Shown here in pieces: positions 51 to 39,435 of a stretch of 39,547 bases of DNA. The notes under the pieces are model-generated. The model searched no databases, had not been told where the DNA came from, and was given only the letters and a program-made list of their open reading frames with translations. Made by a program: the position numbers and the translations under genes. The stretch lies in contig JBLHOD010000001.1 of the NCBI GenBank assembly GCA_047622545.1, positions 1-39,547 on the forward strand, in the 5' to 3' direction. This DNA is from Polaribacter sp. Lineage in GTDB: Bacteria; Bacteroidota; Bacteroidia; Flavobacteriales; Flavobacteriaceae. Positions within the stretch are counted from its first letter, which is position 1, and each line of letters begins with the position of its first letter.

Positions 51-124
51 GGTTGCGTAGCTCAGCTGGATAGAGCAACTCACTTCTAATGAGTAGGTCC
101 CAGGTTCGAATCCTGGCGCGATCA
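51..124 (+). tRNA. tRNA-Arg (anticodon TCT), integration target
   Basis: Acceptor stem GGTTGCG/CGCGATC, D arm GCTCAGCTGGATAGAGC, anticodon stem ACTCA/TGAGT with TCT at 85-87, T loop GGTTCGAATCC. Confidence 0.97.
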
Positions 125-127
125 CAA
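113..127 (+). repeat. attL core (tRNA 3' end) CTGGCGCGATCACAA
   Basis: Identical 15-mer at 39421-39435; integrase gene starts about 100 bp downstream. Confidence 0.9.
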
Positions 128-184: not shown

Positions 185-234
185 ACCGCAACAAAATGAA
201 ACATTTTAAAACATTTTTGCGGAAAATTTGCGGA
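185..234. promoter_or_regulatory. Putative integrase arm-type binding sites
   Basis: TTTGCGGA direct repeats at 216-223 and 227-234 (11-bp period) plus inverted CCGCAA at 186-191, between attL and int. Confidence 0.45.
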
Positions 235-1445
235 TGAAAATCGAATTAAAACTACTTAAAGCGAAAAAAAATACAACTGAAGGTTTTCCGTTGGTATTTG
301 AATTTTCGCACCAGGGAAAAAGAAAACAAAAAACAATTGGATTTTCAAAGATAGAACATTTTATTGATGATCATAAAGCAATTTCTGCAAAGCATCCTGA
401 TTTTGAAGTTTTGCATCCAATTATTACTGAATATAAAATTCTTGCAAGAAAAATTGTTTTATCCGGAATCGATGATGTGGAAAAAGCGTATAAAATGCTT
501 TTTGAAATGAATCAATCGGAACCATCTTTTAAAAAATATTTAGACATTTTATTTGCAGAAATGGAATCGCAAGTAAAAACATTCGAAAAAAATGGCAATA
601 TTCTTTATAGAAATAAAACTGCTGGTAATTTAAAAGTGTATAAAAATGTTTGGGCGCAATTTGAAAATATAATGAATGATCTTGCGGCATCTGAAATTAA
701 TTTCGCTATTTTGACTATTTTTAAAAATAATATGATTAATAAAGGAAATTCTAAAGCAACAATTCATGGCTATTTGTCGATTCTGCGTTCGCTTTATAAT
801 CAATCTAGTGTAAAGTATGGTTTTGAAAATTTAAAACCTTTTGCTGGTGTTTTTTCTGGTTTAAAAGTAAAATCTTATAATTCTAAAAAAAAGCATATTG
901 CGAAAGAAGATATTCAGAAATTAGAATCCTGGACTGGTCCAAAACTAAAAACCGAAGCGGTTGATTTTTTTCTGCTTCAATTCTACTTTGCTGGTGCTGA
1001 TTTAATTGATATTTACTATTTAGAAAATGCGCAATTGGTAAAAAATAGGCTATATTTTGAACGTGGAAAAACTTCTACAGGTAAATTAATTGATATTACA
1101 ATTCATCCAAAAGCGGCCGCAATTTTGAAAAAATACAAAAATAGCTCTAAATATGTTTTCGAATTTCGAAAAGACATTAAAGGTTATGAAACATTTAGAT
1201 CAAGATATGCAAAAAATTTAAGCAAAGTGCAGGAGCAGCTCGAGATTAATGTAATGCCAATTGGTGGAAATTTGGGTGTAAAAGTAGCACGACATACATT
1301 TGCAACCATTGGTAAAAACTTAATGATTGAAGCTGATATTCTACGCGAATTAATGGGCCACGAACGTGATGAAGTAGATAATTATTATAAAGATAAGTTT
1401 CCGCAAAAGGTTCGTGATGCCGCGCTTTTTGAAATTATTGGATAG
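228..1445 (+). CDS. Phage tyrosine integrase (Bacteroidota type); likely start ATG 234
   Basis: C-terminal ARHTFAT ... LMGH ... NYY catalytic motifs, N-terminal arm-binding-like beta region, central SAM-like region (ATIHGYLSILRSLYN); adjacent to attL. Confidence 0.93.
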   Translation: MRMKIELKLLKAKKNTTEGFPLVFEFSHQGKRKQKTIGFSKIEHFIDDHKAISAKHPDFEVLHPIITEYKILARKIVLSGIDDVEKAYKMLFEMNQSEPSFKKYLDILFAEMESQVKTFEKNGNILYRNKTAGNLKVYKNVWAQFENIMNDLAASEINFAILTIFKNNMINKGNSKATIHGYLSILRSLYNQSSVKYGFENLKPFAGVFSGLKVKSYNSKKKHIAKEDIQKLESWTGPKLKTEAVDFFLLQFYFAGADLIDIYYLENAQLVKNRLYFERGKTSTGKLIDITIHPKAAAILKKYKNSSKYVFEFRKDIKGYETFRSRYAKNLSKVQEQLEINVMPIGGNLGVKVARHTFATIGKNLMIEADILRELMGHERDEVDNYYKDKFPQKVRDAALFEIIG

Positions 1446-8829: not shown

Positions 8830-9306
8830 ATGAGTAAAGCAAATTTAAAAGTTATCAAAGGTGATGGGGAAGAAAAAAAAGTAAATTCAAATCTTTATGA
8901 GATTTTGAAAAAGCTTCCGGCTCCAATTGTAAAAATGAAATTAACGGTGGACCAAAAATATTGGTACAACTATTTTGGTACTCAATTAATCGAATCCGAA
9001 AAACTAACAAAACCAGATTTAATTCATCTTCATAGATTATCAACTTCTGTAGATTATTACATTCAAGCAGAAAATGAAATTCGTAAAAAAGGATTTCATG
9101 GTGGATTAATTCAAACCTTCAAAGGTGGAGCAACAAACGTTTCTGGATACGTTACAATTCGCGAAAAAATGCTAAAAGATATTGATGAATTATCTAAACA
9201 TTTTGGCTTCAGTTTCAAAGATAGATCAAAGCTTCAAGAAACATCAAATACTAATCCAGGACAAACTTCATTATTTGATGAATTCTTAAAAGCTAAACAT
9301 GGATAA
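8830..9306 (+). CDS. terS: Terminase small subunit, P27 family
   Basis: Follows HNH; C-terminal LSKHFGFSFKDRSKL matches the P27-type 'FG.TP..R..L' pattern. Confidence 0.8.
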   Translation: MSKANLKVIKGDGEEKKVNSNLYEILKKLPAPIVKMKLTVDQKYWYNYFGTQLIESEKLTKPDLIHLHRLSTSVDYYIQAENEIRKKGFHGGLIQTFKGGATNVSGYVTIREKMLKDIDELSKHFGFSFKDRSKLQETSNTNPGQTSLFDEFLKAKHG

Positions 9307-9308
9307 TT

Positions 9309-9374
9309 ATGAAACTAACAAAAATATTTTTTCTAACATTTTTTTTATCATTTTCTGTAATGGCTTTTGGATAA
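9309..9374 (+). pseudogene. 21-aa signal-peptide-like ORF ending at the first cassette core site
   Basis: MKLTKIFFLTFFLSFSVMAFG* starts 2 nt after the terS stop; its stop TAA is part of GGATAAC. Confidence 0.35.
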
Positions 9375-9396
9375 CGTTCCCACGATAGGGGCTTTT

Positions 9397-9596
9397 GGAT
9401 AACAGCGGAAAAGAGCTTGAAGTAGTTGCTGAATTAATAACTAAACAAAATAAACAAAAACAAATGATTAAGATAGATTATAAAGAAAGAGCAGAAGATT
9501 TAGCTAATGACAACATTAAGTTAATGGACAAAAACTCTAGTCTAAACTCTGAAAATGAAAAACTTAAAATGCAATTACTACAAGCTAATGTTGTAG
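9397..9596. repeat. attC-like hairpin A (long loop containing an ATG)
   Basis: GGATAAC 9397-9403; arms AGCTTGAAGTAGTTGC / GCAATTACTACAAGCT; GTTGTAG 9590-9596. Confidence 0.7.
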
Positions 9597-9706
9597 GGCA
9601 AAGCGAACAGTTAAAAAAGTTTTGGGAATATTTCGATAAAGAAAGTATTGCTATTAACTGCAATGATAAAGAACGTGACCAAGTGATAAAAGACTTTTTT
9701 AATTGA
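9464..9706 (+). CDS. 80-aa protein starting inside hairpin A and ending at hairpin B
   Basis: ATG 9464 after an A-rich leader (ORF track starts at TTG 9395); crosses the core as ..ANVVGQSEQL..; TGA 9704-9706 abuts CTACAAC. Confidence 0.65.
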   Translation: MIKIDYKERAEDLANDNIKLMDKNSSLNSENEKLKMQLLQANVVGQSEQLKKFWEYFDKESIAINCNDKERDQVIKDFFN

Positions 9707-9842
9707 CTACAACGGTTCTCGGCTTTGTCGTCGTTGTGGCGATTTAAGACCAAACTTAACAAATAACAACTAATTTTTAAATTAAAAACTATGAATACAA
9801 ATAAAGACCAAGTGCCACAATGCGACAAAACCGCTGTTGGCA
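9707..9842. repeat. attC-like hairpin B
   Basis: CTACAAC 9707-9713; arms CTTTGTCGTCGTTGTGGC / GCCACAATGCGACAAAA; GTTGGCA 9836-9842. Confidence 0.8.
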
Positions 9843-9846
9843 GTAG

Positions 9847-10314
9847 TTATTTATCATCTATCAAAACGAATAAAGTTTTTGAAGAAAAAGCAATTATTAT
9901 TTCATATTTGAGATACCATGATCTAAATGTTCCATTCTCTTCATCTCTGTAAGCATTTAAGTCATTTTGGTCAAATTCTTTTTGATATACAAAATCTTCT
10001 CCCAAAACAGAATAAAATAAATTAATTAAATCTCTCACATCTTTTTCATCAGCATCATTTTTAGATAAAAAAATTGACCTTTTACCATTCGCTTTTTCGG
10101 ATAAACTTATATATTCAAAAGGCTTTTCACCTTCATTTAGGTTTAAATCGGAAACTTTAATAACATTCTTTAATTCATCATCAATAGTTACTTCACCAAC
10201 TTCCATTTCCTCATGATTATAATCATAGGGGTTAACATTAAGTTCTGTTAAAATACTATCTAATTTTGAAGAATTATTGTTATTATCACTTTTTAAAAAA
10301 TCAAAAAATCCCAT
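9847..10314 (-). CDS. Cassette gene: acidic hypothetical protein
   Basis: 155-aa ORF with MGFFDFLK start; stop 11 bp from the GTT core. Confidence 0.8.
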   Translation of the reverse strand: MGFFDFLKSDNNNNSSKLDSILTELNVNPYDYNHEEMEVGEVTIDDELKNVIKVSDLNLNEGEKPFEYISLSEKANGKRSIFLSKNDADEKDVRDLINLFYSVLGEDFVYQKEFDQNDLNAYRDEENGTFRSWYLKYEIIIAFSSKTLFVLIDDK

Positions 10315-10363
10315 ATTATATTTTATTATTTAGTTTGTTTTAGACGATTTTCTTTATAATTAC

Positions 10364-10492
10364 TGCTTACGTTGTTGTGTAAGGAAAGTTGCGTGTTTGC
10401 GAGGATTTTCCGAAGGAAAATCAGAAGCTAGCAAACACGCAACTAACTTAGGTTTAGCTAAAACTAGCAATTTTTTTTACACGGTGTTGGCT
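10364..10492. repeat. attC-like hairpin C with nested internal hairpins
   Basis: TGCTTAC (variant core); arms GTGTAAGGAAAGTTGC / GCAATTTTTTTTACAC; GTTGGCT 10486-10492. Confidence 0.78.
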
Positions 10493-10499
10493 GTAGTTT

Positions 10500-10940
10500 T
10501 TATAATTTAAATTTTGGTTTACTTTCAATTCTTTTGATTATTTCTTTAGTTTCTTTTTTTGAATTATACCAAGCTATCCCAAAACAAATAGCCAAAATGA
10601 GAGTAGTTATTGTAAATATTCCATTAAAGAAAAGGTTCCAAGAAGAATTAAACCCTTGAATACTACTCCCTTCAGCTATTGTATTCAGTAATAAAGGCAA
10701 GAAAAGAGCAACAGTGGCAATTGTAAGTTCTTTCCATAAATTATCACTTCCTCTTTTTATTGTATTAAATTCATGTTCATTTAGTGAATAAAAAGTTGAA
10801 TGTCCATCAAAATGCATTTCAGAAGTGGCTTTGGCTTTATTAATTTCTTCAATAGGTAAAGCTTGCGAGTTTTCTTCTTGCCCTTCCGATATTTGACTAT
10901 TTATATCGCTAGGGTTATTAGATTTCGTTTCCATCTGCAT
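10500..10940 (-). CDS. Cassette gene: two-TM membrane protein
   Basis: Two hydrophobic helices; overlaps the upstream gene. Confidence 0.8.
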   Translation of the reverse strand: MQMETKSNNPSDINSQISEGQEENSQALPIEEINKAKATSEMHFDGHSTFYSLNEHEFNTIKRGSDNLWKELTIATVALFLPLLLNTIAEGSSIQGFNSSWNLFFNGIFTITTLILAICFGIAWYNSKKETKEIIKRIESKPKFKL

Positions 10941-11295
10941 CTACTTTTTTACCTAATAACCATGTATATTCAAAAATTACACCTTTATCATTATTAATAC
11001 CAAACACTCTGTAATTAAAAAAAAGGTTTCTACCTTCCAACCATCCAACTCTAATTGGATTTACATTTCCTGTTCCTAACGAATTATTAAAATTCACGAA
11101 ATTTAGACCAATACCGACTTTCTCAAGTTTGTAAGGTTCTAACCTTGTCTCTTTATTTTCTATATCAGCTGTAAATTTAAATTCAGCTAAAAATTGAAAT
11201 TTTGAACCAAGAGAAATTTCAATATTTTCTTTATTTGGGTTTATTAAAGAACCTTTCTCATAAACATCAAGTTCTCCTATTTTAGTTTTTATCAT
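10918..11295 (-). CDS. Cassette gene: small beta-rich protein (DUF6864-like)
   Basis: Alternating beta pattern with NFNNSLGTG..P..VG motif; family call from memory. Confidence 0.6.
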   Translation of the reverse strand: MIKTKIGELDVYEKGSLINPNKENIEISLGSKFQFLAEFKFTADIENKETRLEPYKLEKVGIGLNFVNFNNSLGTGNVNPIRVGWLEGRNLFFNYRVFGINNDKGVIFEYTWLLGKKVDADGNEI

Positions 11296-11336
11296 TGTCT
11301 TGAATTACTTTTATTTTCTCGTGTTGTTTAAATTAC

Positions 11337-11461
11337 AGCCAACGTTATGCCACTTAGTAAGGTTGTGGACTTTTGAAAACGAGTACTTTCGGCTGGAAGT
11401 AAACGTTATTAAAAAAAGGCAATTCCACTACACCCAAAATCTCGATAAATGGCGGTTATGC
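11337..11461. repeat. attC-like hairpin D
   Basis: AGCCAAC 11337-11343; imperfect arms CCACTTAGTAAGGTTGTGG / CCAAAATCTCGATAAATGG; GTTATGC 11455-11461 contains the stop codon of the DUF4435-like gene. Confidence 0.7.
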
Positions 11462-12421
11462 GAAGTTTTCTTGGGGCAAAGATTTTAAATATTTTATTAA
11501 ACTTTCACAAGTTATTGCATTATTAGTAAGTTGAGAAATTGATGTGGAATATTCAAAACGCAATGGAGAAGAATATTTTTTAGGAAAAACGGAATTTTTT
11601 CTTTTGCCAATTTCATCTTGAAATCTATTTAGAAATGAAATTAAAAACTTTAATTCAAATTTACCTCTAAATGTTTTAGACTTATTAACAGATTTGAATA
11701 TTTCCAGTTTTTTATCAAAATTTAAGTCTGTTATTTTGGGTGATTCTGAAAATAAAGTTTCGATATTTTCTTTACTTTTAAGTTCTTCAGGAAATAAAAT
11801 TGTTATTAAATCATTCTTAACAATCTTTTCAAAAATATCACAATTAAAATATCTCTTTAATGTGTCATCAATGTTTAACCTTGTATTCGAATTATTTAGT
11901 TTACGAAAATCATTTTGGCAACTTAACCAAGCATTAAAAAATATTATATTTGAATGGAAAACCTCTTTACAATTAACATACAGATCAATGGCTTGATTGA
12001 AAACAGGACAACTTTTAGGAATATTAAATTCATTTATTAAAATATTTTCAAAAGCTTCATCAATAGTGTAAAAATTTTCTATACTATAAAATGGGGTGAC
12101 ATAAATTTTACCATCTAAATTATTTTCTTCAAAGTCTTTATCTACAAAATACATAGTTGAGGAGTTCGCATATATTACATGATTATTCATTAATTGATGT
12201 AATTTTATTAAATTTCCTTTCCCATTGCAATTATAGTTGAATATCTCATGTTGATGGTTGTAAGATTTAATCCTAAATGAATAATATGATCTATCTTCTT
12301 TACCTTCGTAAAAACAATAGAGATTCTTTTTGTTTTTATTAAAATCTAAGACAAATTCAGTGTAAGCAACTAATTCTGATTCAAGTTCCTTTTTTGCAAT
12401 TTCAATTATATTACTTTCCAT
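11456..12421 (-). CDS. DUF4435-like TOPRIM nuclease (PARIS AriB-like)
   Basis: TOPRIM motifs FYEGKED, GKGNL, FVDKDF, YSIENF, RGKF; 2 bp downstream of an ABC ATPase. Confidence 0.8.
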   Translation of the reverse strand: MESNIIEIAKKELESELVAYTEFVLDFNKNKKNLYCFYEGKEDRSYYSFRIKSYNHQHEIFNYNCNGKGNLIKLHQLMNNHVIYANSSTMYFVDKDFEENNLDGKIYVTPFYSIENFYTIDEAFENILINEFNIPKSCPVFNQAIDLYVNCKEVFHSNIIFFNAWLSCQNDFRKLNNSNTRLNIDDTLKRYFNCDIFEKIVKNDLITILFPEELKSKENIETLFSESPKITDLNFDKKLEIFKSVNKSKTFRGKFELKFLISFLNRFQDEIGKRKNSVFPKKYSSPLRFEYSTSISQLTNNAITCESLIKYLKSLPQENFA

Positions 12422-12423
12422 TT

Positions 12424-13815
12424 TTAATCTATAAATACATTCATACCTATTGCAAAATTTTCTAATTCATTACTAAAAATAAATGGTGAATGAGTTACTG
12501 CTAATAAAAATTTACATTTATCTGATTCCATAACATGAGGCAGTAATTGCTTTTGCCACTTTATTGAAAGTGAAAGTTCAGGTTCATCGAAAAAAATCAT
12601 TAAATCACTAAGGTCTTCAAGATATATTTTAGAAAAGAGTGAAATTATTTGTTTTTCTCCTGATGATAACTGATTAAGTTCAACCTTTTCCTCAGTTTGG
12701 CTATTGTATATATTTAAGGTTACTGAACTTTCATCAAAAAACATTTTTTTACCGACTAAATATTGATTGGTGACTTTTTCAAAATCTTTAATAGAATTAT
12801 CCAATTCTCTTTGACGTAAATAAATATCTTCAAGTTTTGTTAAAAAATATGCAAGTTCAGGTTTAGTTAATAATTCTTTTGAGTCCAAAAGCATTAAAAT
12901 ATTTTCCCTATCAGCTTGCGATAAATTGTTTTTAACACGATTTAAAATAATTTCAATATTATTTCTATTTATATTTAAAATTTCATCTTTAGACAATTTT
13001 GGAAAACCCTCTTGTAATTGGTGTAACATTTCACCAGTTACTTTTGCAAAACCTTTAATTGAACTGTCGTTAATTTTAGAAATAATTTTTCTAATTCTTT
13101 CTTCAACATCCTCCATTCCAAATTGAATTAATGTTTCATCTTCTAGATCTTCTGTTTCTTCTCTTTCATCTTCATCGTCCCACAGCATATTATTCATTTC
13201 GTCATTATGTATTCTTCGTAATTTACCTAAATTATGTAATTCCTCTTCAACTCTTCTGTATGTTGGGAAGTAAATAATATTAGTATTGAATTCTATTTCT
13301 AGAAAACTCACTAATTTTTCTAAACTAGTAAAATCTGGTTGCTTAGAAATTAGGTCTATTAATTCAACTATTAATCCAATAGGAGGATTATTTAATTCTA
13401 CAGCTAACTTATTTTTTCGAACATATTCGTAAATTATTCTATGCTTATCTATATTTTCTTCACTTCTATTTGAAATAAATGAATTTAAGTCTTCGATATT
13501 TAAAATTTTGGTGATTTCAGATTTTAAATTTTTATATCTTAAATTTCTTTTATTATTTAAACTTTCTAAATAACTGTTAAGTTGTAATTTCGTAAAACTA
13601 AATTGGTTATTATCAATAGTTAAGGAAATACTATCAAAGTTTATTTTTAGTAATTTTTTCCACTTTTTGGTAAGAGTAAAGTATAATGAATTAAGTATAG
13701 ATGTTTTACCTAAACCGTTTTCACCCATTAAGATTAATACATTATTATCAAAATGTAAATCAACGTTTTGATATCCAAATAGTTTTTTTATTTTAAAATT
13801 TTGTAAGTTATTCAT
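12424..13815 (-). CDS. AAA_15/AAA_21 ABC-type ATPase (PARIS AriA-like)
   Basis: Walker A GENGLGKT, YFPTYR, signature LSSGEKQ, Walker B FFDEPELSL, H-loop VTHSPF. Confidence 0.9.
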   Translation of the reverse strand: MNNLQNFKIKKLFGYQNVDLHFDNNVLILMGENGLGKTSILNSLYFTLTKKWKKLLKINFDSISLTIDNNQFSFTKLQLNSYLESLNNKRNLRYKNLKSEITKILNIEDLNSFISNRSEENIDKHRIIYEYVRKNKLAVELNNPPIGLIVELIDLISKQPDFTSLEKLVSFLEIEFNTNIIYFPTYRRVEEELHNLGKLRRIHNDEMNNMLWDDEDEREETEDLEDETLIQFGMEDVEERIRKIISKINDSSIKGFAKVTGEMLHQLQEGFPKLSKDEILNINRNNIEIILNRVKNNLSQADRENILMLLDSKELLTKPELAYFLTKLEDIYLRQRELDNSIKDFEKVTNQYLVGKKMFFDESSVTLNIYNSQTEEKVELNQLSSGEKQIISLFSKIYLEDLSDLMIFFDEPELSLSIKWQKQLLPHVMESDKCKFLLAVTHSPFIFSNELENFAIGMNVFID

Positions 13816-13870
13816 TTTTGTTTTTCTAAATTTTGTTTAATAAATATGAGTTCTTATGAGTAAAAATGTA

Positions 13871-14115
13871 GCATAACGTCAGTATGTAAAAAATTAAAAT
13901 CAAACTCTTGAGAATCCCATATTTGAGATTGTTCTTTGGAGTTCTTTGAATACTTTCTAGATTTGAAGAGATTTTTTCACAGCCTGACGTTTTTCAGCTT
14001 GCGAAAGTTGCGTTTTACAGCACCAAGCCTTTACAAATATACACTAACTTTTAAATTTAAAAATATATTTATAGACACTTCCTAAACTAGCCACTTTTAC
14101 AAACAGCTGTTGTGT
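13871..14115. repeat. attC-like hairpin E with two alternative left cores
   Basis: GCATAAC 13871-13877 and GCCTGAC 13982-13988; arm GCTTGCGAAAGTTGC vs GCCACTTTTACAAAC; GTTGTGT 14109-14115. Confidence 0.65.
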
Positions 14116-14124
14116 GTTCGGTTT

Positions 14125-14493
14125 TTATTCTTTTTCTGATAGTTTTATATTAATATAACATAAAAAAGCTCCAATTATTCTCAAAACAGAGTTCCAAATA
14201 CCAACATTTTCTCTGTTAGTTGAGAACAAGTAATAATCACCAACAATAACGATTAATACCCAAATAATTAAAAATATATTCAATGTTTGGATTTTAAATT
14301 TTGGTGCAATAAGATAGACAGGAACAATAAAAAACAATCCTTGTAGTAAAAATAAAGAACCGTTCAATAAAAAAGAATTTGCAAATGTATTACTAGACAA
14401 AAAAAGTTGCACAAGTTGTTGATATAAATATGGAAATATTATTGAGCATATTATTGATACTGGTAAAACTAAAATCCAACGAAGTATATTCAT
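14125..14493 (-). CDS. Cassette gene: four-TM membrane protein
   Basis: Four hydrophobic segments; stop 16 bp from the GTT core. Confidence 0.8.
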   Translation of the reverse strand: MNILRWILVLPVSIICSIIFPYLYQQLVQLFLSSNTFANSFLLNGSLFLLQGLFFIVPVYLIAPKFKIQTLNIFLIIWVLIVIVGDYYLFSTNRENVGIWNSVLRIIGAFLCYINIKLSEKE

Positions 14494-14643
14494 AAAAGTG
14501 GTTTAATATCGAATACAATATTAAAATAAAAAAAGTTAAGAATTTTACGGTTTCCCGTAAAGCATTTAAAAATTAATTATGAGGTTTAATATTCCTCCTT
14601 AAAAATTATGTCTATAAATAAAAAACAAAATTTTAATTCATAG

Positions 14644-14699
14644 TGGTTTTTCAGAAGGAAAAACCAAGCCTAAACTGTTTTTGCTAACCGTTGTTGGCA
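14644..14699. repeat. Degenerate attC-like site F (right half only recognisable)
   Basis: Internal hairpin TGGTTTTTC-AGAAG-GAAAAACCA similar to that in site C; GTTGGCA 14693-14699. Confidence 0.5.
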
Positions 14700-14716
14700 T
14701 AAGATTATTATTTTAT

Positions 14717-15292
14717 TTAATTATTGCTATTTATTTCATATATAGAATTAAAATCATTTATGAAATTATTTTTTTCGAAATATAAATATTTGTTTTCCAG
14801 TTTGTTATATTCTAATTTATTATCTATGTCTTTTAAAAAACCATTAAGGTATTTAGTTGTTAAATTTGTTTTATAATATTTAGTATCAACAGCTATTATG
14901 TTCTTTTCTAAATTATAATCAAAATTCATACCTTCAGAATCATAATACTCTGCTAAAATGAATAATGAATATCCATTTTTTAAACAATAGGATTGAATAA
15001 TTTCGAGTGGATAACAAACTTTACTTTTACATTTTGAACCCCAAATATATACAATTGATTTTTCGTTTTTGAGTAAACATTTTTTTAAAGTTAAACCATC
15101 TGTTATAAAAATAAAATTTTCAATTTTTGAATATTTACCACAGATTGTATCAGTATTTTTTGTTTTGATAAATAAGTTTGGACTTTCTTTCTTTGTCTTG
15201 TTATAATAACTATAAAGGCCTTGAAAACCTCCATTAAATGAACAAGAAGTAATAATTAAACAAATAACAGTAAGATAAAATATTTTTTTCAT
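14717..15292 (-). CDS. Cassette gene: lipoprotein, possibly thioredoxin-like fold
   Basis: Lipobox-like IITSC; IVYIWGSKCKSKVC resembles a W..C..C redoxin motif. Confidence 0.7.
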   Translation of the reverse strand: MKKIFYLTVICLIITSCSFNGGFQGLYSYYNKTKKESPNLFIKTKNTDTICGKYSKIENFIFITDGLTLKKCLLKNEKSIVYIWGSKCKSKVCYPLEIIQSYCLKNGYSLFILAEYYDSEGMNFDYNLEKNIIAVDTKYYKTNLTTKYLNGFLKDIDNKLEYNKLENKYLYFEKNNFINDFNSIYEINSNN

Positions 15293-15305
15293 ATTAATTT
15301 AGTTT

Positions 15306-15340
15306 AAAACAAGGTTGAAGTAAATAATTCAACCTTGTTT
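15306..15340. terminator. Strong hairpin between the two lipoprotein genes
   Basis: AAAACAAGGTTGAA ... TTCAACCTTGTTTT inverted repeat. Confidence 0.65.
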
Positions 15341-15350
15341 TGTTGTTTTT

Positions 15351-15872
15351 TTAATTTTCTAAAGCATTAATAATGTAACCACCAAAGTTACCTACACTTG
15401 AGTCAAATTGATATTCACCTTTAAGTAAAGTTGTCTTAACACTACTTATGTTATTATCAATATATAATGTTTGACGATTATTAATTGCATTTAAATGTTC
15501 GCTTTTTGTAGGGTCTAATTTAATTGTTAAATATCCAGTTTTTGTTTCATCATATATAATGATTTCACCACCGTTTACAACTCTATTTTGATCATAACAG
15601 TCAACAACCACGCCATGTTCAGTACAGCAAAACCAGCAATCAACATAATTACATAATCCAAAGCCACTACAGCTTTTACTTGTTCTACCCCAGCTATCCC
15701 AATCTGCATAATGAAAATGAAATTCTTTTTCCTTTTTTAGATAATTTTCATTAATATTATTTTCAGTTGAATCTACTGAATTAATTATGGTTTCTTCATT
15801 TTCAGAACATGATGTAAATATTAAAAAAATGATAAAACACATTAAACTTATTGTTGAAAATATTTTTTTCAT
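15351..15872 (-). CDS. Cassette gene: Cys-rich lipoprotein
   Basis: Lipobox-like IFTSC; WGRTSKSCSGFGLC..CWFCC. Confidence 0.75.
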   Translation of the reverse strand: MKKIFSTISLMCFIIFLIFTSCSENEETIINSVDSTENNINENYLKKEKEFHFHYADWDSWGRTSKSCSGFGLCNYVDCWFCCTEHGVVVDCYDQNRVVNGGEIIIYDETKTGYLTIKLDPTKSEHLNAINNRQTLYIDNNISSVKTTLLKGEYQFDSSVGNFGGYIINALEN

Positions 15873-16069
15873 AATTGATATTTTACCCTATTATTAATTC
15901 GGTCTACCGAAAGGACGACAACTTTAGGCACAATTTTGTTTTAAGTTAATTTGTACCGCCCTGTTGGTTTACTAACTTTTACTTATTACTAACTTTTCGT
16001 TTTTCCTTGAATGAATTCTATTGTATCTTCAAGCGATTCGTCCTTTTAGCAATGTTTTTCAAAATTTTC

Positions 16070-16200
16070 TGCCAACGATTAGTATATGAAAAGTAGATAA
16101 TTCCGAAGCACAAAACTTTCGGTTAAGTACAAACTTTGATACGAGCTAAAAGTATTTAATTCATTACTAATTCGCCTATTTTTTATATACACTGTTGTAG
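16070..16200. repeat. attC-like hairpin G
   Basis: TGCCAAC 16070-16076; arms GTATATGAAAAGTAG / CTATTTTTTATATAC; GTTGTAG 16194-16200. Confidence 0.8.
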
Positions 16201-16267
16201 CACGTTTTGTATTACAATCCGTAATACAAATTTTATTTTTTCAAAGCAAACTTTAATTTCGAAAATA

Positions 16268-16525
16268 TTAGAAATTAAGGCCTAATTCTTTTAATTTAAT
16301 TTTTATTTCTTCTGTTTGATTTTTTATTTTAAACATCTCGTTTCTGTCAGTAGAAGTATCAATATAAACAAAAGCGTCAGAATCATTTATTAATTCTATT
16401 ATTGTATAAAGTTGCGAATATACAAACCCATAACAATCTTTAAAATATTGCTTGTTTTCAATTTCGTTTAGTTGATATTCTTTTTCTCCGTCAAAGAATA
16501 TTATATTTAATATTGGTTCTGTCAT
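16268..16525 (-). CDS. Cassette gene: small acidic hypothetical protein
   Basis: 85-aa ORF between site G and half-site H. Confidence 0.7.
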   Translation of the reverse strand: MTEPILNIIFFDGEKEYQLNEIENKQYFKDCYGFVYSQLYTIIELINDSDAFVYIDTSTDRNEMFKIKNQTEEIKIKLKELGLNF

Positions 16526-16539
16526 TTTTTTTTAAAATT

Positions 16540-16580
16540 CCTATTTCGCCATACCAAACCGTAGTTGTGTGTTCGGCTTT
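16540..16580. repeat. Half attC-like site H
   Basis: GTTGTGTGTTCGG at 16564-16576 is identical to 14109-14121; no left arm seen. Confidence 0.5.
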
Positions 16581-17080
16581 TATAATTTGAATAAACTTTT
16601 TTAACATTTTTTAAGTAAAAAGTATTTTTATAAACCAATACTTATAACACCTTTTTTTTATGATAAATTAATTATTATATTTTCAAAATTAGAATTTTTT
16701 TTTCAAAAAACTAATAATATACGGAAGAAAGATTACGGTTTAACCGTATTTTTTATTAGCTCATTTACACAATAATAATAACCATAATAAAGCTACTTTT
16801 ATAATTTAAATTAAACGCAATTTTGTTTTATAAGTTGGCAGTGTTTTATTCAAACATTTACCACGATAATTCAACAAAGATATAATTTATCATTTGTTGC
16901 ATTAAGTTATTGAATGCTCACGCGTTTTTCTCAATTCATTGCTAACTCAAATATATCCGAAAATATAAAAAACAAATTAAGTTATTTTATTAATATTCAG
17001 TACATTATTAGAGTATAATTAAACGAACAAAATTCGTTTTTATTTTTGATACTTAGATCAAATATAAACTTTTAGTATTT

Positions 17081-18784
17081 CTAAATAACTGTAGGATCAC
17101 TCATGTTAAATTCTCCTTCAGAAGTTACAAACTTGGTCCAGGTTGGTCGCATTACTAAATATTTGAATGCATCTGAATAATTGGTAGAATACATCGGTCG
17201 TAAATGCATGGCTAATTTTTCAGAAGATTTGTCTTTATATATTTTTGACGCTCCAGTTCTATCTCTTCTATTGTCAATTTTGGTCAACTCAATAGAACTT
17301 TTTACACATTTACAATTGAATTTGTCAATTTTTAATTTTGGTAAACCTTTCACAGTTTCGCCCATCATTCCTTTAACAAAATTATACTCATCTTCTTGCA
17401 AAATTGTTCCTTGGCCAACGCTCATTAATTCAACATACCAACCGGTAGAGTTTCCAAATTCATCATACTCAATTGCTTTTTTTAGCGCAGAAGCCCAATC
17501 TCGTTTGGTATTTGCGTTTTGATTTCCCGAACGGTCATAATACAATTTTAGTTTTTTTAATTTATGATATTTATAGTATTCTCTATATTGTTTTCCCAAT
17601 TGTATTTCATTCTCTGGAGCAAGCGTATGAAATTCTTTTAATAAATATAAATATTCTCCTCTAGGTTGTGCTGTAACCATACTGCACATTCCTCCAAAAT
17701 CTACACCCGCTTCTAATTCTTGATTATGATCAATATACCTTAAAGCTAGTGAGCTTTCTTCAATAGTATCTAAAATTCCAAATTTATCATAATAAGAATT
17801 TATGGTTCCATCTTCAAAAAAATGATGCTCTCCAAGATTGCCATAAAACTTTTCACCTTTTGTTAAATTGACTTTAAAGGACAAAATAGCACTTTTAAAT
17901 TCTTCGATTCCAAGAGCTTTTAAACTGTCTTTAAAAAATCCTTGCGTTAAAACATCCACATTTACAAAAGAAGAAACAACATAAAAAAATGTCAAATCTT
18001 TACGAGCTCTTATCCAACGCTCTCGCCATCTACCTAAATTTTTTCTTAATTGCTCAACCTTAATTTTATCATTGTCTTTTTGAGCATTATACAATTCAAT
18101 GTTAATTTCATTTAACACCAGGGCACAATTCAAAGCCAATTTCACCTGGTCTAAGTCCATGTCTTTTTCATGCTGCATTATCCAATCTTCATCACCATCT
18201 AAAATATTAGGCATATCGGTGGTAAATGTTCGACCTCTATAAAAAACAGAATGGCCAAACTGTGCATATTCTCCACGAATTGCTGGATTTAGCTTTTTAA
18301 GTTTTTGAAATTTTAACAAACGAGCTTCATCCCCAAAAATATGTTGAAATGAATCTCCAGCCAAACCTGAAGGTTGATCTAAACTTCCAAGACTAAACAT
18401 ACATCCATTGTAAATAGATATGGTATGTTTGAAACTTTCGACTGGCTTGTAGTTTAATTTAAAATGATTTGGAGGTCTTTTGTCTGTTACATAATGAATT
18501 CCTTCTTTCCATCCTTCACGGTTCCAACCCTCAATAAGTGTTGGAACTACATTACGCATTGCATTTACATACGTATCAGAAACAAATACACTACGACTGC
18601 GTGGCATATCTTCTACAACATTAATAGATCGCTTTGCAATTATTTCTGATGTTTTGGCAGTTGCACGACCAGCAATTCCGTAAAAATCTTTTGGCTGAAT
18701 TAAATCTACTAAAATCGTAAACCAATTAGCATAAATAGATTCTATATTTATGTCATCAGCCTTTACGTGGGTTTTCCGACTCAT
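17081..18784 (-). CDS. terL: Terminase large subunit of prophage B
   Basis: Walker A-like AGRATAKT, Walker B IFGDEA, RNase H-like nuclease motifs AGVDFG, YYDRSG, YSDAFKY. Confidence 0.88.
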   Translation of the reverse strand: MSRKTHVKADDINIESIYANWFTILVDLIQPKDFYGIAGRATAKTSEIIAKRSINVVEDMPRSRSVFVSDTYVNAMRNVVPTLIEGWNREGWKEGIHYVTDKRPPNHFKLNYKPVESFKHTISIYNGCMFSLGSLDQPSGLAGDSFQHIFGDEARLLKFQKLKKLNPAIRGEYAQFGHSVFYRGRTFTTDMPNILDGDEDWIMQHEKDMDLDQVKLALNCALVLNEINIELYNAQKDNDKIKVEQLRKNLGRWRERWIRARKDLTFFYVVSSFVNVDVLTQGFFKDSLKALGIEEFKSAILSFKVNLTKGEKFYGNLGEHHFFEDGTINSYYDKFGILDTIEESSLALRYIDHNQELEAGVDFGGMCSMVTAQPRGEYLYLLKEFHTLAPENEIQLGKQYREYYKYHKLKKLKLYYDRSGNQNANTKRDWASALKKAIEYDEFGNSTGWYVELMSVGQGTILQEDEYNFVKGMMGETVKGLPKLKIDKFNCKCVKSSIELTKIDNRRDRTGASKIYKDKSSEKLAMHLRPMYSTNYSDAFKYLVMRPTWTKFVTSEGEFNMSDPTVI

Positions 18785-39420: not shown

Positions 39421-39435
39421 CTGGCGCGATCACAA
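39421..39435 (+). repeat. attR core CTGGCGCGATCACAA
   Basis: Exact copy of 113-127. Confidence 0.9.

Follow-up and report, generated by a model that had tools for sequence, protein, structure and literature searches.

The stretch of Polaribacter sp. DNA analysed here (the window, 39,547 nt) is contig C1 of a Flavobacteriaceae genome bin that is 82% complete. It consists of a single 39.3-kb element inserted in a tRNA-Arg(TCT) gene, the last 15 bases of which reappear at position 39421. The left half of the element carries genes for an integrase, a repressor, DnaB, an HNH protein and a small terminase (terS), and is colinear with the viral contigs L001 and L219-L221 (76% identity for the integrase, 81% for terS). 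The right half lies in the opposite orientation and matches a second phage family (L088-L090). The large terminase and the later genes are absent from the left prophage, and the right prophage is also without late genes; three relatives of it have a variable region and further late genes after the terminase-like gene, and no hairpins were found near these relatives. At the meeting point of the two truncated prophages, starting about 65-95 nt past the terS stop codon, lies an array of cargo genes separated by hairpin sites, at the terS-side position where sister phages keep cassette arrays. The array comprises six full sites, an overlapping near-symmetric hairpin (E5a) and three remnants, all of the same polarity (Table 1).

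Table 1. Features of the window; complementarity of cassette ends is given as matching bases out of six. att, attachment site; ORF, open reading frame.
Feature	Position	Strand	Remarks
tRNA-Arg(TCT)	51..125	+	insertion site of the composite prophage
att direct repeat, left copy	113..127	+	15 bp, 3' end of the tRNA
Prophage integrase	228..1445	+	tRNA-targeting type
terS	8830..9306	+	small terminase of the left prophage
Duplicated core	9363..9403	+	decayed left end of the array; direct repeat of 13-14 bp whose copies end in AAC (9373-9375 and 9401-9403)
E1	9401-9592	+	192 nt, hairpin of phage type with a degenerate left core; ORF 9464 starts inside it
ORF 9464	9464..9706	+	80-aa phage-type cassette gene; starts within E1, GTT core read as Val codon, stop just before E2
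E2	9711-9838	+	hairpin of phage family; best-formed site
Cargo gene	9847..10314	-	155 aa, no family match; cassette ends 5/6
E3	10368-10488	+	hairpin of chromosomal family; crossover-side core changed to TAC
Two-gene cassette	10500..11295	-	DUF6864 (10918-11295) and 146-aa two-helix membrane protein (10500-10940); ends 6/6
E4	11341-11457	+	hairpin with weak arms; part of the PARIS cassette
Predicted PARIS defence pair	11456..13815	-	AriA-like ATPase (12424-13815) and AriB/DUF4435 (11456-12421); cassette 11344-13877, ends 5/6
E5a	13875-13991	+	near-symmetric 117-nt hairpin overlapping E5b
E5b	13986-14111	+	decayed hairpin; core GAC; top strand folds better
Cargo gene	14125..14493	-	122-aa membrane protein; matching upstream core not found
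E6	14644..14701	+	right arm only, GTT at 14693
Two lipoprotein-like cargo genes	14717..15872	-	15351-15872 and 14717-15292; cassette 14693-16076, ends 5/6
Cassette leader	15892..16076	-	non-coding
E7	16074-16196	+	hairpin of chromosomal and plasmid family
Cargo gene	16268..16525	-	85 aa
E8	16540..16577	+	right arm only, GTT at 16564
E9	16834..16843	+	bare core, GTT at 16834
Terminase-like gene	17081..18784	-	567 aa; second, opposite-facing prophage
att direct repeat, right copy	39421..39435	+	15 bp

The initial annotation, made from the sequence, had described a cargo array separated by hairpins, and this description was borne out. The full sites measure 117-192 nt, and a model-free scan for arms found five sites in 9300-17100, one more in the rest of the window and none of opposite polarity, compared with 0-1 per shuffle in the controls (one match across ten shuffles). 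The partial sites that it had placed at 14644, 16540 and 16834 correspond to remnants in which only the right arm or the GTT core is left. The elements in general start with AAC and end with GTT, as it had proposed, but E1, E3 and E5b depart from this at the left core. The consensus of attC cores is RYYYAAC / GTTRRRY. This layout, which had been assigned to the array, did not hold: only AAC/GTT and the next base are fixed, and the cores read as GTT followed by six bases that vary from cassette to cassette. The low sequence similarity noted between hairpins is real among the window sites themselves (mean column identity 35%), but each of them belongs to a wider repeat family. Relatives of E3 are 85-93% identical and occur in many Flavobacteriaceae genomes, those of E2 are 83.5% identical and occur in cultured Flavobacterium phages, those of E7 are 82-85% identical and lie on Myroides and Riemerella plasmids, and E1 has a 192-nt relative in Lillamyvirus. 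A contig of run X4 matches E1 alone (9406-9592 only) and ends at GTT. A search with E2 in 100 related genomes returned AT-rich noise only, and no Rfam family matches the window region or seven array loci. Whole-element folding was significant against shuffles for three of the six sites tested, namely E2 (z -2.7/-2.1), E3 (-4.9/-5.4) and E5a (-2.3/-3.2), but not for E4, E5b and E7; the score of E3 derives from an inner stem. Variants of E5a are present at high depth in three runs, and E5a may be a separate repeat family. E5b and E8 have the same core and flank (14100-14133 versus 16555-16588, 82% over 34 nt), which hints at a partial duplication.

Most of the window cargo is host-type, and only the E1 cassette is phage-type, with an antisense gene that starts inside its hairpin. 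For five minus-strand cargo ORFs, the distance between the stop and the G of a GTT core is 11, 14, 1, 16 and 24 nt, within the range of 1-24 nt first reported, and for a sixth (ORF 16268) it is 74 nt; the stop codon of the DUF4435-like gene is indeed the TTA of G-TTA. The adjacent AriA-like and AriB-like genes form a predicted PARIS pair (PADLOC, E 4e-29 for AriA and 3e-27 for AriB; Pfam DUF4435 above cut-off). PARIS is composed of the ABC ATPase AriA and the DUF4435/TOPRIM nuclease AriB (PMC11464382), and, as far as that source was available to us, the window pair resembles it in gene adjacency and in its location at a variable prophage locus, but differs in being packed as a core-bounded cassette. 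The relatives of ORF 9464 share either only the hairpin-coded N-terminal part (three) or only the C-terminal part (three), with the switch at the core Val codon; in viral contigs this ORF gave a single spurious match. The remaining cargo showed no family or relative in the searches made, and a Pfam/PADLOC scan of the window cargo detected no interbacterial immunity family. A scan for the Bacteroidetes -7 box gave 19 matches in an AT-rich region with no control and was not used.

In a cassette, one or two genes are enclosed by a GTT core and a complementary AAC core, with an asymmetric hairpin of 120-190 nt as the last part. Out of the six variable bases, 4, 5, 6, 5 and 5 are complementary at the cassette ends of the window, compared with 1, 1, 4, 1, 1 and 2 at the hairpin ends. 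In the chromosomal arrays of 80 Flavobacteriaceae loci, the mean complementarity is 5.3 for cassette ends (n=135), 2.15 for hairpin ends (n=201) and 2.16 for random pairs, and in a larger de-duplicated set at least five of the six bases are complementary for 535/575 cassette ends versus 79/784 hairpin ends. Complementary ends are also found in 29 of 31 phage cassettes. As cassette ends are complementary and hairpin ends mostly are not, the unit is the gene plus its downstream hairpin and not a miniature inverted-repeat transposable element (MITE).

The behaviour of close copies leads to the same unit. Among 607 cassettes, 51 pairs from 16 loci have bodies at least 95% identical and different neighbours on both sides; the downstream hairpin is at least 90% identical in 49 of these pairs, the upstream hairpin in 7. 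The mean hairpin identity in close pairs is 0.98 downstream versus 0.69 upstream, the random value being 0.63. Identity begins 1-2 bases before GTT in 22/30 cases and ends 3-4 bases into the next core in 25/30. An exchange at both cores as a general rule was rejected for chromosomes, where hairpin swaps are rare. In two cultured Lillamyvirus phages, a 444-bp cassette that ends at the core is 100% identical at two different places, and it is missing from the first of these places in a third cultured phage; the methylase cassette of Lillamyvirus is headed by a relative of E2. Cassettes that recur with junctions at the cores and other neighbours, which the initial annotation had proposed to look for, were thus found. 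A PARIS homologue in genome G360, the single one among 400 family genomes, has complementary cores of its own at both ends, another hairpin and other neighbours. The leader at 15892-16076 is 82% identical to the start of a cassette in genome G264, with the breakpoint exactly at the core; it is conserved ahead of different genes and has no Rfam match. In addition, a 2471-nt contig (X2) from another study matches 11434-13853 with 80 differences (97%), while the window sequence on either side of this interval is barely covered. In the chromosomal arrays of L150-L189, many cassettes of 300-500 nt are present in several copies per array, and some appear to have no sense ORF; the longer ORF is antisense in 138 of the 607 cassettes.

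These data leave little room for the view that the hairpins are mobile repeats of the MITE or repetitive extragenic palindromic type which insert between genes, the array being a pile-up with the genes as passengers. This view is extremely improbable and already largely refuted, given that hairpin ends are no more complementary than random pairs, that hairpins remain with the gene upstream of them, and that the sites show a strict polarity and a position behind a recombinase and a half-site, as detailed below. It does draw some support from the wide distribution of the hairpin families, from near-identical copies that head unrelated genes (331 of 474 pairs at least 96% identical), from the 11 of 121 pairs below 95% body identity whose downstream hairpin falls under 0.7, and from the modularity of the 80-aa ORF at the core.

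A candidate enzyme is encoded in the same bin. On contig C18, a gene for a tyrosine recombinase of 398 aa precedes a half-site, after which come six co-directional genes separated by sites of the same kind. At 80 related loci, 206 sites of the same polarity lie downstream of the recombinase, against one of opposite polarity and one upstream, which agrees with the earlier suggestion that larger arrays should adjoin a tyrosine recombinase; 38 of the 43 loci with at least 2 kb of downstream sequence contain a site. The half-site, ATATAACNA directly followed by GTT, occurs in 35 bacterial loci, 15-223 nt past the recombinase stop codon. The recombinase was detected in 69 of 150 genomes of the genus. 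Among 20 distant homologues, which include Chlorobi and Flavobacterium, nine have similar sites and two have flanks that are too short. Further single sites or pairs of the hairpin family are present in the bin (G000) on contigs C9, C36, C43, C137 and C248.

A different but comparable arrangement exists in the sister phages (L222-L232, terS 70-76% identical), which carry one to seven hairpins, a fixed half-site and a 266-aa recombinase, 30% identical to the host recombinase, between terS and the large terminase gene (terL). The half-site differs from the bacterial one and lies 56-61 nt before the recombinase start. Among 13 phage loci, four of which have too little upstream DNA, the 9-base core partner of the last cassette starts 61 nt before the recombinase ATG in all nine with an upstream hairpin (9/9, two of which have the same last cassette). 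No hairpin was found downstream of the recombinase at the sister-phage loci. In phage arrays the genes are antisense relative to the host type (29/29) and often begin inside the hairpin; GTT as an in-frame Val codon is not a general rule, as it applies to 11 of the 18 crossing ORFs among 44 hairpins. The same locus holds other cargo in L001 and L221 and is empty in L004 and L005. Among closer and more distant sisters, the enzyme is lacking: some hold hairpins at the site, and in others it is empty. In cultured phages, the search for the recombinase returned distant integrases only (32-39%). L225 also has three sites of opposite polarity upstream. In four phages (L221:11474, L003:10459, L229:2035 and L231:525) the first hairpin begins at the terS stop codon, TAA-C forming the core, which suggests that this stop codon may have served as the original target. 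In two phages that have no recombinase, the arrays (L001:12594-12620 and L221:11755-11770) end in a bare core followed by a similar short sequence, which may represent another type of half-site. At 9370 of the window, 13 bases look like the phage half-site; they lie in the duplicated core, at the wrong end of the array. ORFs that resemble reverse transcriptases by eye lie near the terminase genes of related phages (L006:2772-3842 and L005:13241-14203).

With regard to the enzymes, the closest solved structures to the host recombinase are those of XerA, and the catalytic R-K-H-R-H-Y columns are invariant. The host recombinase is 22-25% identical to the Xer-like proteins of the bin and 34% identical to IntI1 over 273 columns. 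Unlike XerA, XerC and XerD, the recombinases are flanked by cassette arrays and not by dif. The IntI-specific insertion is missing from both host and phage enzymes (17 versus 60 residues in the comparison with VchIntI4, about 40 missing in that with IntI1). The host enzyme has an additional N-terminal domain of about 90 aa (predicted structure, predicted local distance difference test score 81), which resembles the N-terminal domain of UvsW (Z 6.9) and the damage-recognition domain of XPB (Z 6.2); both resemblances are weak and below the clear level, and neither a Foldseek match at E<=0.001 nor a profile match in the PDB was found. This type of fold is known to read branched DNA. The domain is absent from five homologues without arrays, but also from the phage enzymes. 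The integrase of the window has no similarity to these recombinases beyond the catalytic motif and was discarded as the cassette enzyme.

Integrons are defined by an integrase with the IntI-specific insertion (intI_Cterm; PMC4889954, as far as this source was accessible). As this insertion is absent from the host and phage enzymes, the arrays are integron-like and not integrons by definition. The system appears from its sequences to work like an integron, yet it lacks the feature by which integrons are recognised. The similarities to integrons and to clusters of attC sites lacking integron integrases (CALINs) comprise a gene followed by a hairpin, GTT/AAC cores, cassette-specific complementary ends and a single polarity. 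In common with integrons, there are also a half-site at the head of the array (an attI-like analogue in the 35 bacterial and in nine phage loci, the window having none), one strand that folds better, and cargo for defence and resistance. In contrast, the cores are GTT plus six variable bases and the arms are offset by about 3 nt. The host enzyme is oriented towards the array, has the half-site on its 3' side and carries the extra N-terminal domain, and the phage cassettes carry antisense genes, often starting in the hairpin. That the sites are ordinary attC sites of a CALIN served by an IntI encoded elsewhere is therefore highly unlikely, even if the cores, the cassette logic and the skew towards bottom-strand folding are alike. 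Against the integron-integrase model, the recombinase reaches 201.7 bits. In a small 273-column tree, the single IntI1 falls among the enzymes described here, on a long branch, and this tree gives no support for an origin independent of IntI. However, the score is below the cut-off of 265 and the match is split in two, the arms are offset by 3 nt in 307/348 chromosomal sites, and the half-site is located 3' of the host enzyme. The absence of an integron integrase stated in the initial annotation was confirmed: no enzyme with the IntI insertion is encoded in the window or the bin, whose four tyrosine recombinases include no IntI.

Two reports come close to this system, and both are considered here from the parts accessible to us. 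Qi et al. (2023, PMC9892861) described a CALIN, with two sites that they call attC, near DNA methyltransferases in the Polaribacter phage P12002L, which may be taken to favour ordinary attC sites. Of these, attC2 was recombined by IntI1, but it is not a whole site of the hairpin family described here; attC1, which is family-like with a 6-versus-3-nt arm offset as found here (PMC9892861 supplement), was not. We found four more sites of the family in the P12002L genome at 32.5-40.9 kb. The other report concerns rAID-1 of Bacteroidales (Ross et al., 10.1101/471110), in which a XerD-like recombinase lies 5' of co-directional low-GC genes, with a motif 3' of the stop codon of this recombinase and repeated intergenic sequences called reminiscent of integrons. 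Its membership is given by a XerD-like recombinase with at least two co-directional genes of GC content <=41%, more than 44% identity to B. fragilis BF9343_RS08045 and a Bacteroidales host. C18 has the first of these features (six co-directional genes, genome GC 31%), and the window itself does not. Unlike the present system, rAID-1 is defined by immunity cargo against the type VI secretion system in gut Bacteroidales, and the accessible part of that report describes no cassette boundaries, hairpins, attI or phages. By its description, rAID-1 appears to be the closest published hint. Together with the Polaribacter phage CALIN it is partial prior art for a system that is otherwise barely described; the literature search found no description of the full system beyond these two reports, most subscription journals being outside its reach.

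Because near-identical units with exact ends and different neighbours adjoin recombinases, they are likely shuffled by an integron-like system. An alternative mechanism is that the units are real but are moved by homologous or micro-homology recombination between hairpin linkers, as in phage mosaicism, the recombinase being incidental or acting on double-stranded sites. Many array phages have no such recombinase (L001, L221 and the Lillamyvirus regions examined) and the hairpin families offer up to 120 nt of homology; nevertheless, this mechanism seems very unlikely, as the breakpoints cluster at 1-4 bases from GTT, also where the two hairpins are dissimilar, the complementary cassette ends and fixed half-site require a site-specific step, and the strand opposite the host-type genes folds better in 771 of 781 distinct sites, which fits a single-stranded substrate. 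We also considered whether the composite window is an assembly chimera at a repeated hairpin, in which case the system would be real and the array would be two separate ones. In run X1, contigs end at E3, E4 and E5, and no piece spans the array. On the other hand, all unique pieces have an even depth (50-65), the att repeat bounds the element on both sides, and in any case the cassettes adjoin terS on the left and terL on the right. A chimera is accordingly very unlikely.

Based on these observations, the window holds a partly decayed cassette array, and the enzyme that cuts its cassettes out and inserts them is likely to be a XerA-like tyrosine recombinase from Bacteroidota without the IntI insertion. 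The unit, its boundary between C and GTT to within a few bases, the polarity, the half-site and the association with a recombinase are shown by the sequences. In this mechanism, the strand opposite the host-type genes would fold as single-stranded DNA, and the folded hairpin would be cut by the enzyme at its GTT core. Cassettes would be released in circular form and be reinserted either at the half-site or at a further hairpin, and the antisense genes of phage cassettes would ride on the phage transcript. The terS locus of the left prophage was probably a cassette locus with one phage-type cassette (E1) that gained host-type cassettes, including PARIS, which would protect the lysogen. The absence of the phage recombinase, attI and late genes probably goes back to a deletion by which two tandem prophages became joined, perhaps by way of recombination at two such sites, and the host enzyme would then be the sole remaining actor on the window array.

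Several observations weigh against this interpretation. Neither recombination nor circles nor a preference for one strand were seen, the assignment of the enzyme is by position only, and recombination itself is inferred. The pairs and sites counted above are related and not independent, and 9 of the 20 distant recombinase homologues have no hairpins despite long flanks. C1 and C18 belong to one bin, an 82% complete assembly, and may come from one cell, and the relatives of E1 and E2 lie in freshwater Flavobacterium phages. In the window itself, there is no remnant of the phage recombinase and no attI-like half-site. E4, E5b and E7 fold no better than shuffles (z between -0.7 and +1.2), and the array is partly decayed, with two sites that have altered cores and three that are truncated. 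A matching upstream core is absent for three cargo segments. Given this poor folding and the altered, truncated and unmatched sites, much of the window array may be immobile. The order of the cassettes rests on the original assembly, since E3, E4 and E5 each contain a contig break in run X1, the possible source run. For no window cassette was a near-identical copy found in which both junctions could be seen: the PARIS pair of G360 is just 41-47% identical to that of the window, contig X2 begins inside E4 and its match stops 22 nt before the far core, AriB was matched in one of 400 family genomes, the loci of eight distant AriA relatives have no hairpins, and the DUF6864 cargo has no relative in metagenome contigs.

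Sites of the hairpin family are present in distant Bacteroidota and in Chlorobi, in cultured phages, and on Riemerella and Myroides plasmids. On the Riemerella anatipestifer plasmid NZ_CP072192.1 (L149:1399-8533), five of six consecutive cassettes have 6/6 complementary ends, carrying MarR, a hypothetical pair, ere(D), erm(F) and estT, the exception being blaOXA. On the Myroides odoratimimus plasmid NZ_CP013691.1 (L148:8026-10853), the ends are 5/6 for blaMYO-1, 6/6 for a GNAT gene and not complementary for blaOXA. For these cultured phages, an influence of the methylase content on plating efficiency has been reported (PMC7077304, in the part accessible to us). A more ambitious proposal, for and against which we see equal grounds, is that all these arrays belong to one phylum-wide second lineage of integrons, whose enzymes never had the IntI insertion. 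The bacterial enzymes would carry an N-terminal fork-recognition domain (UvsW/XPB/HARP-like) and the phages a minimal enzyme of 266 aa, and both would take their cassettes from a common pool, the source of anti-phage systems, phage methylases and clinical resistance genes. The hairpin of phages would act both as the start of translation and as a coding module for the N-terminus. The creation of cassettes would be recorded in near-identical hairpins that are joined exactly at AAC to unrelated genes, so that the question of how cassettes arise could be tested.

Since integrons are defined and detected through IntI and the attC model, a system without them is invisible to standard surveys. The window adds to this system a prophage cassette locus that carries host-type cargo, including a predicted defence system. 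If confirmed, these findings would imply that hairpin recombination does not require the IntI insertion, near-identical hairpins on unrelated genes would offer material on how cassettes are made, and the arrays would represent a gene-capture route common to Bacteroidota and their phages.

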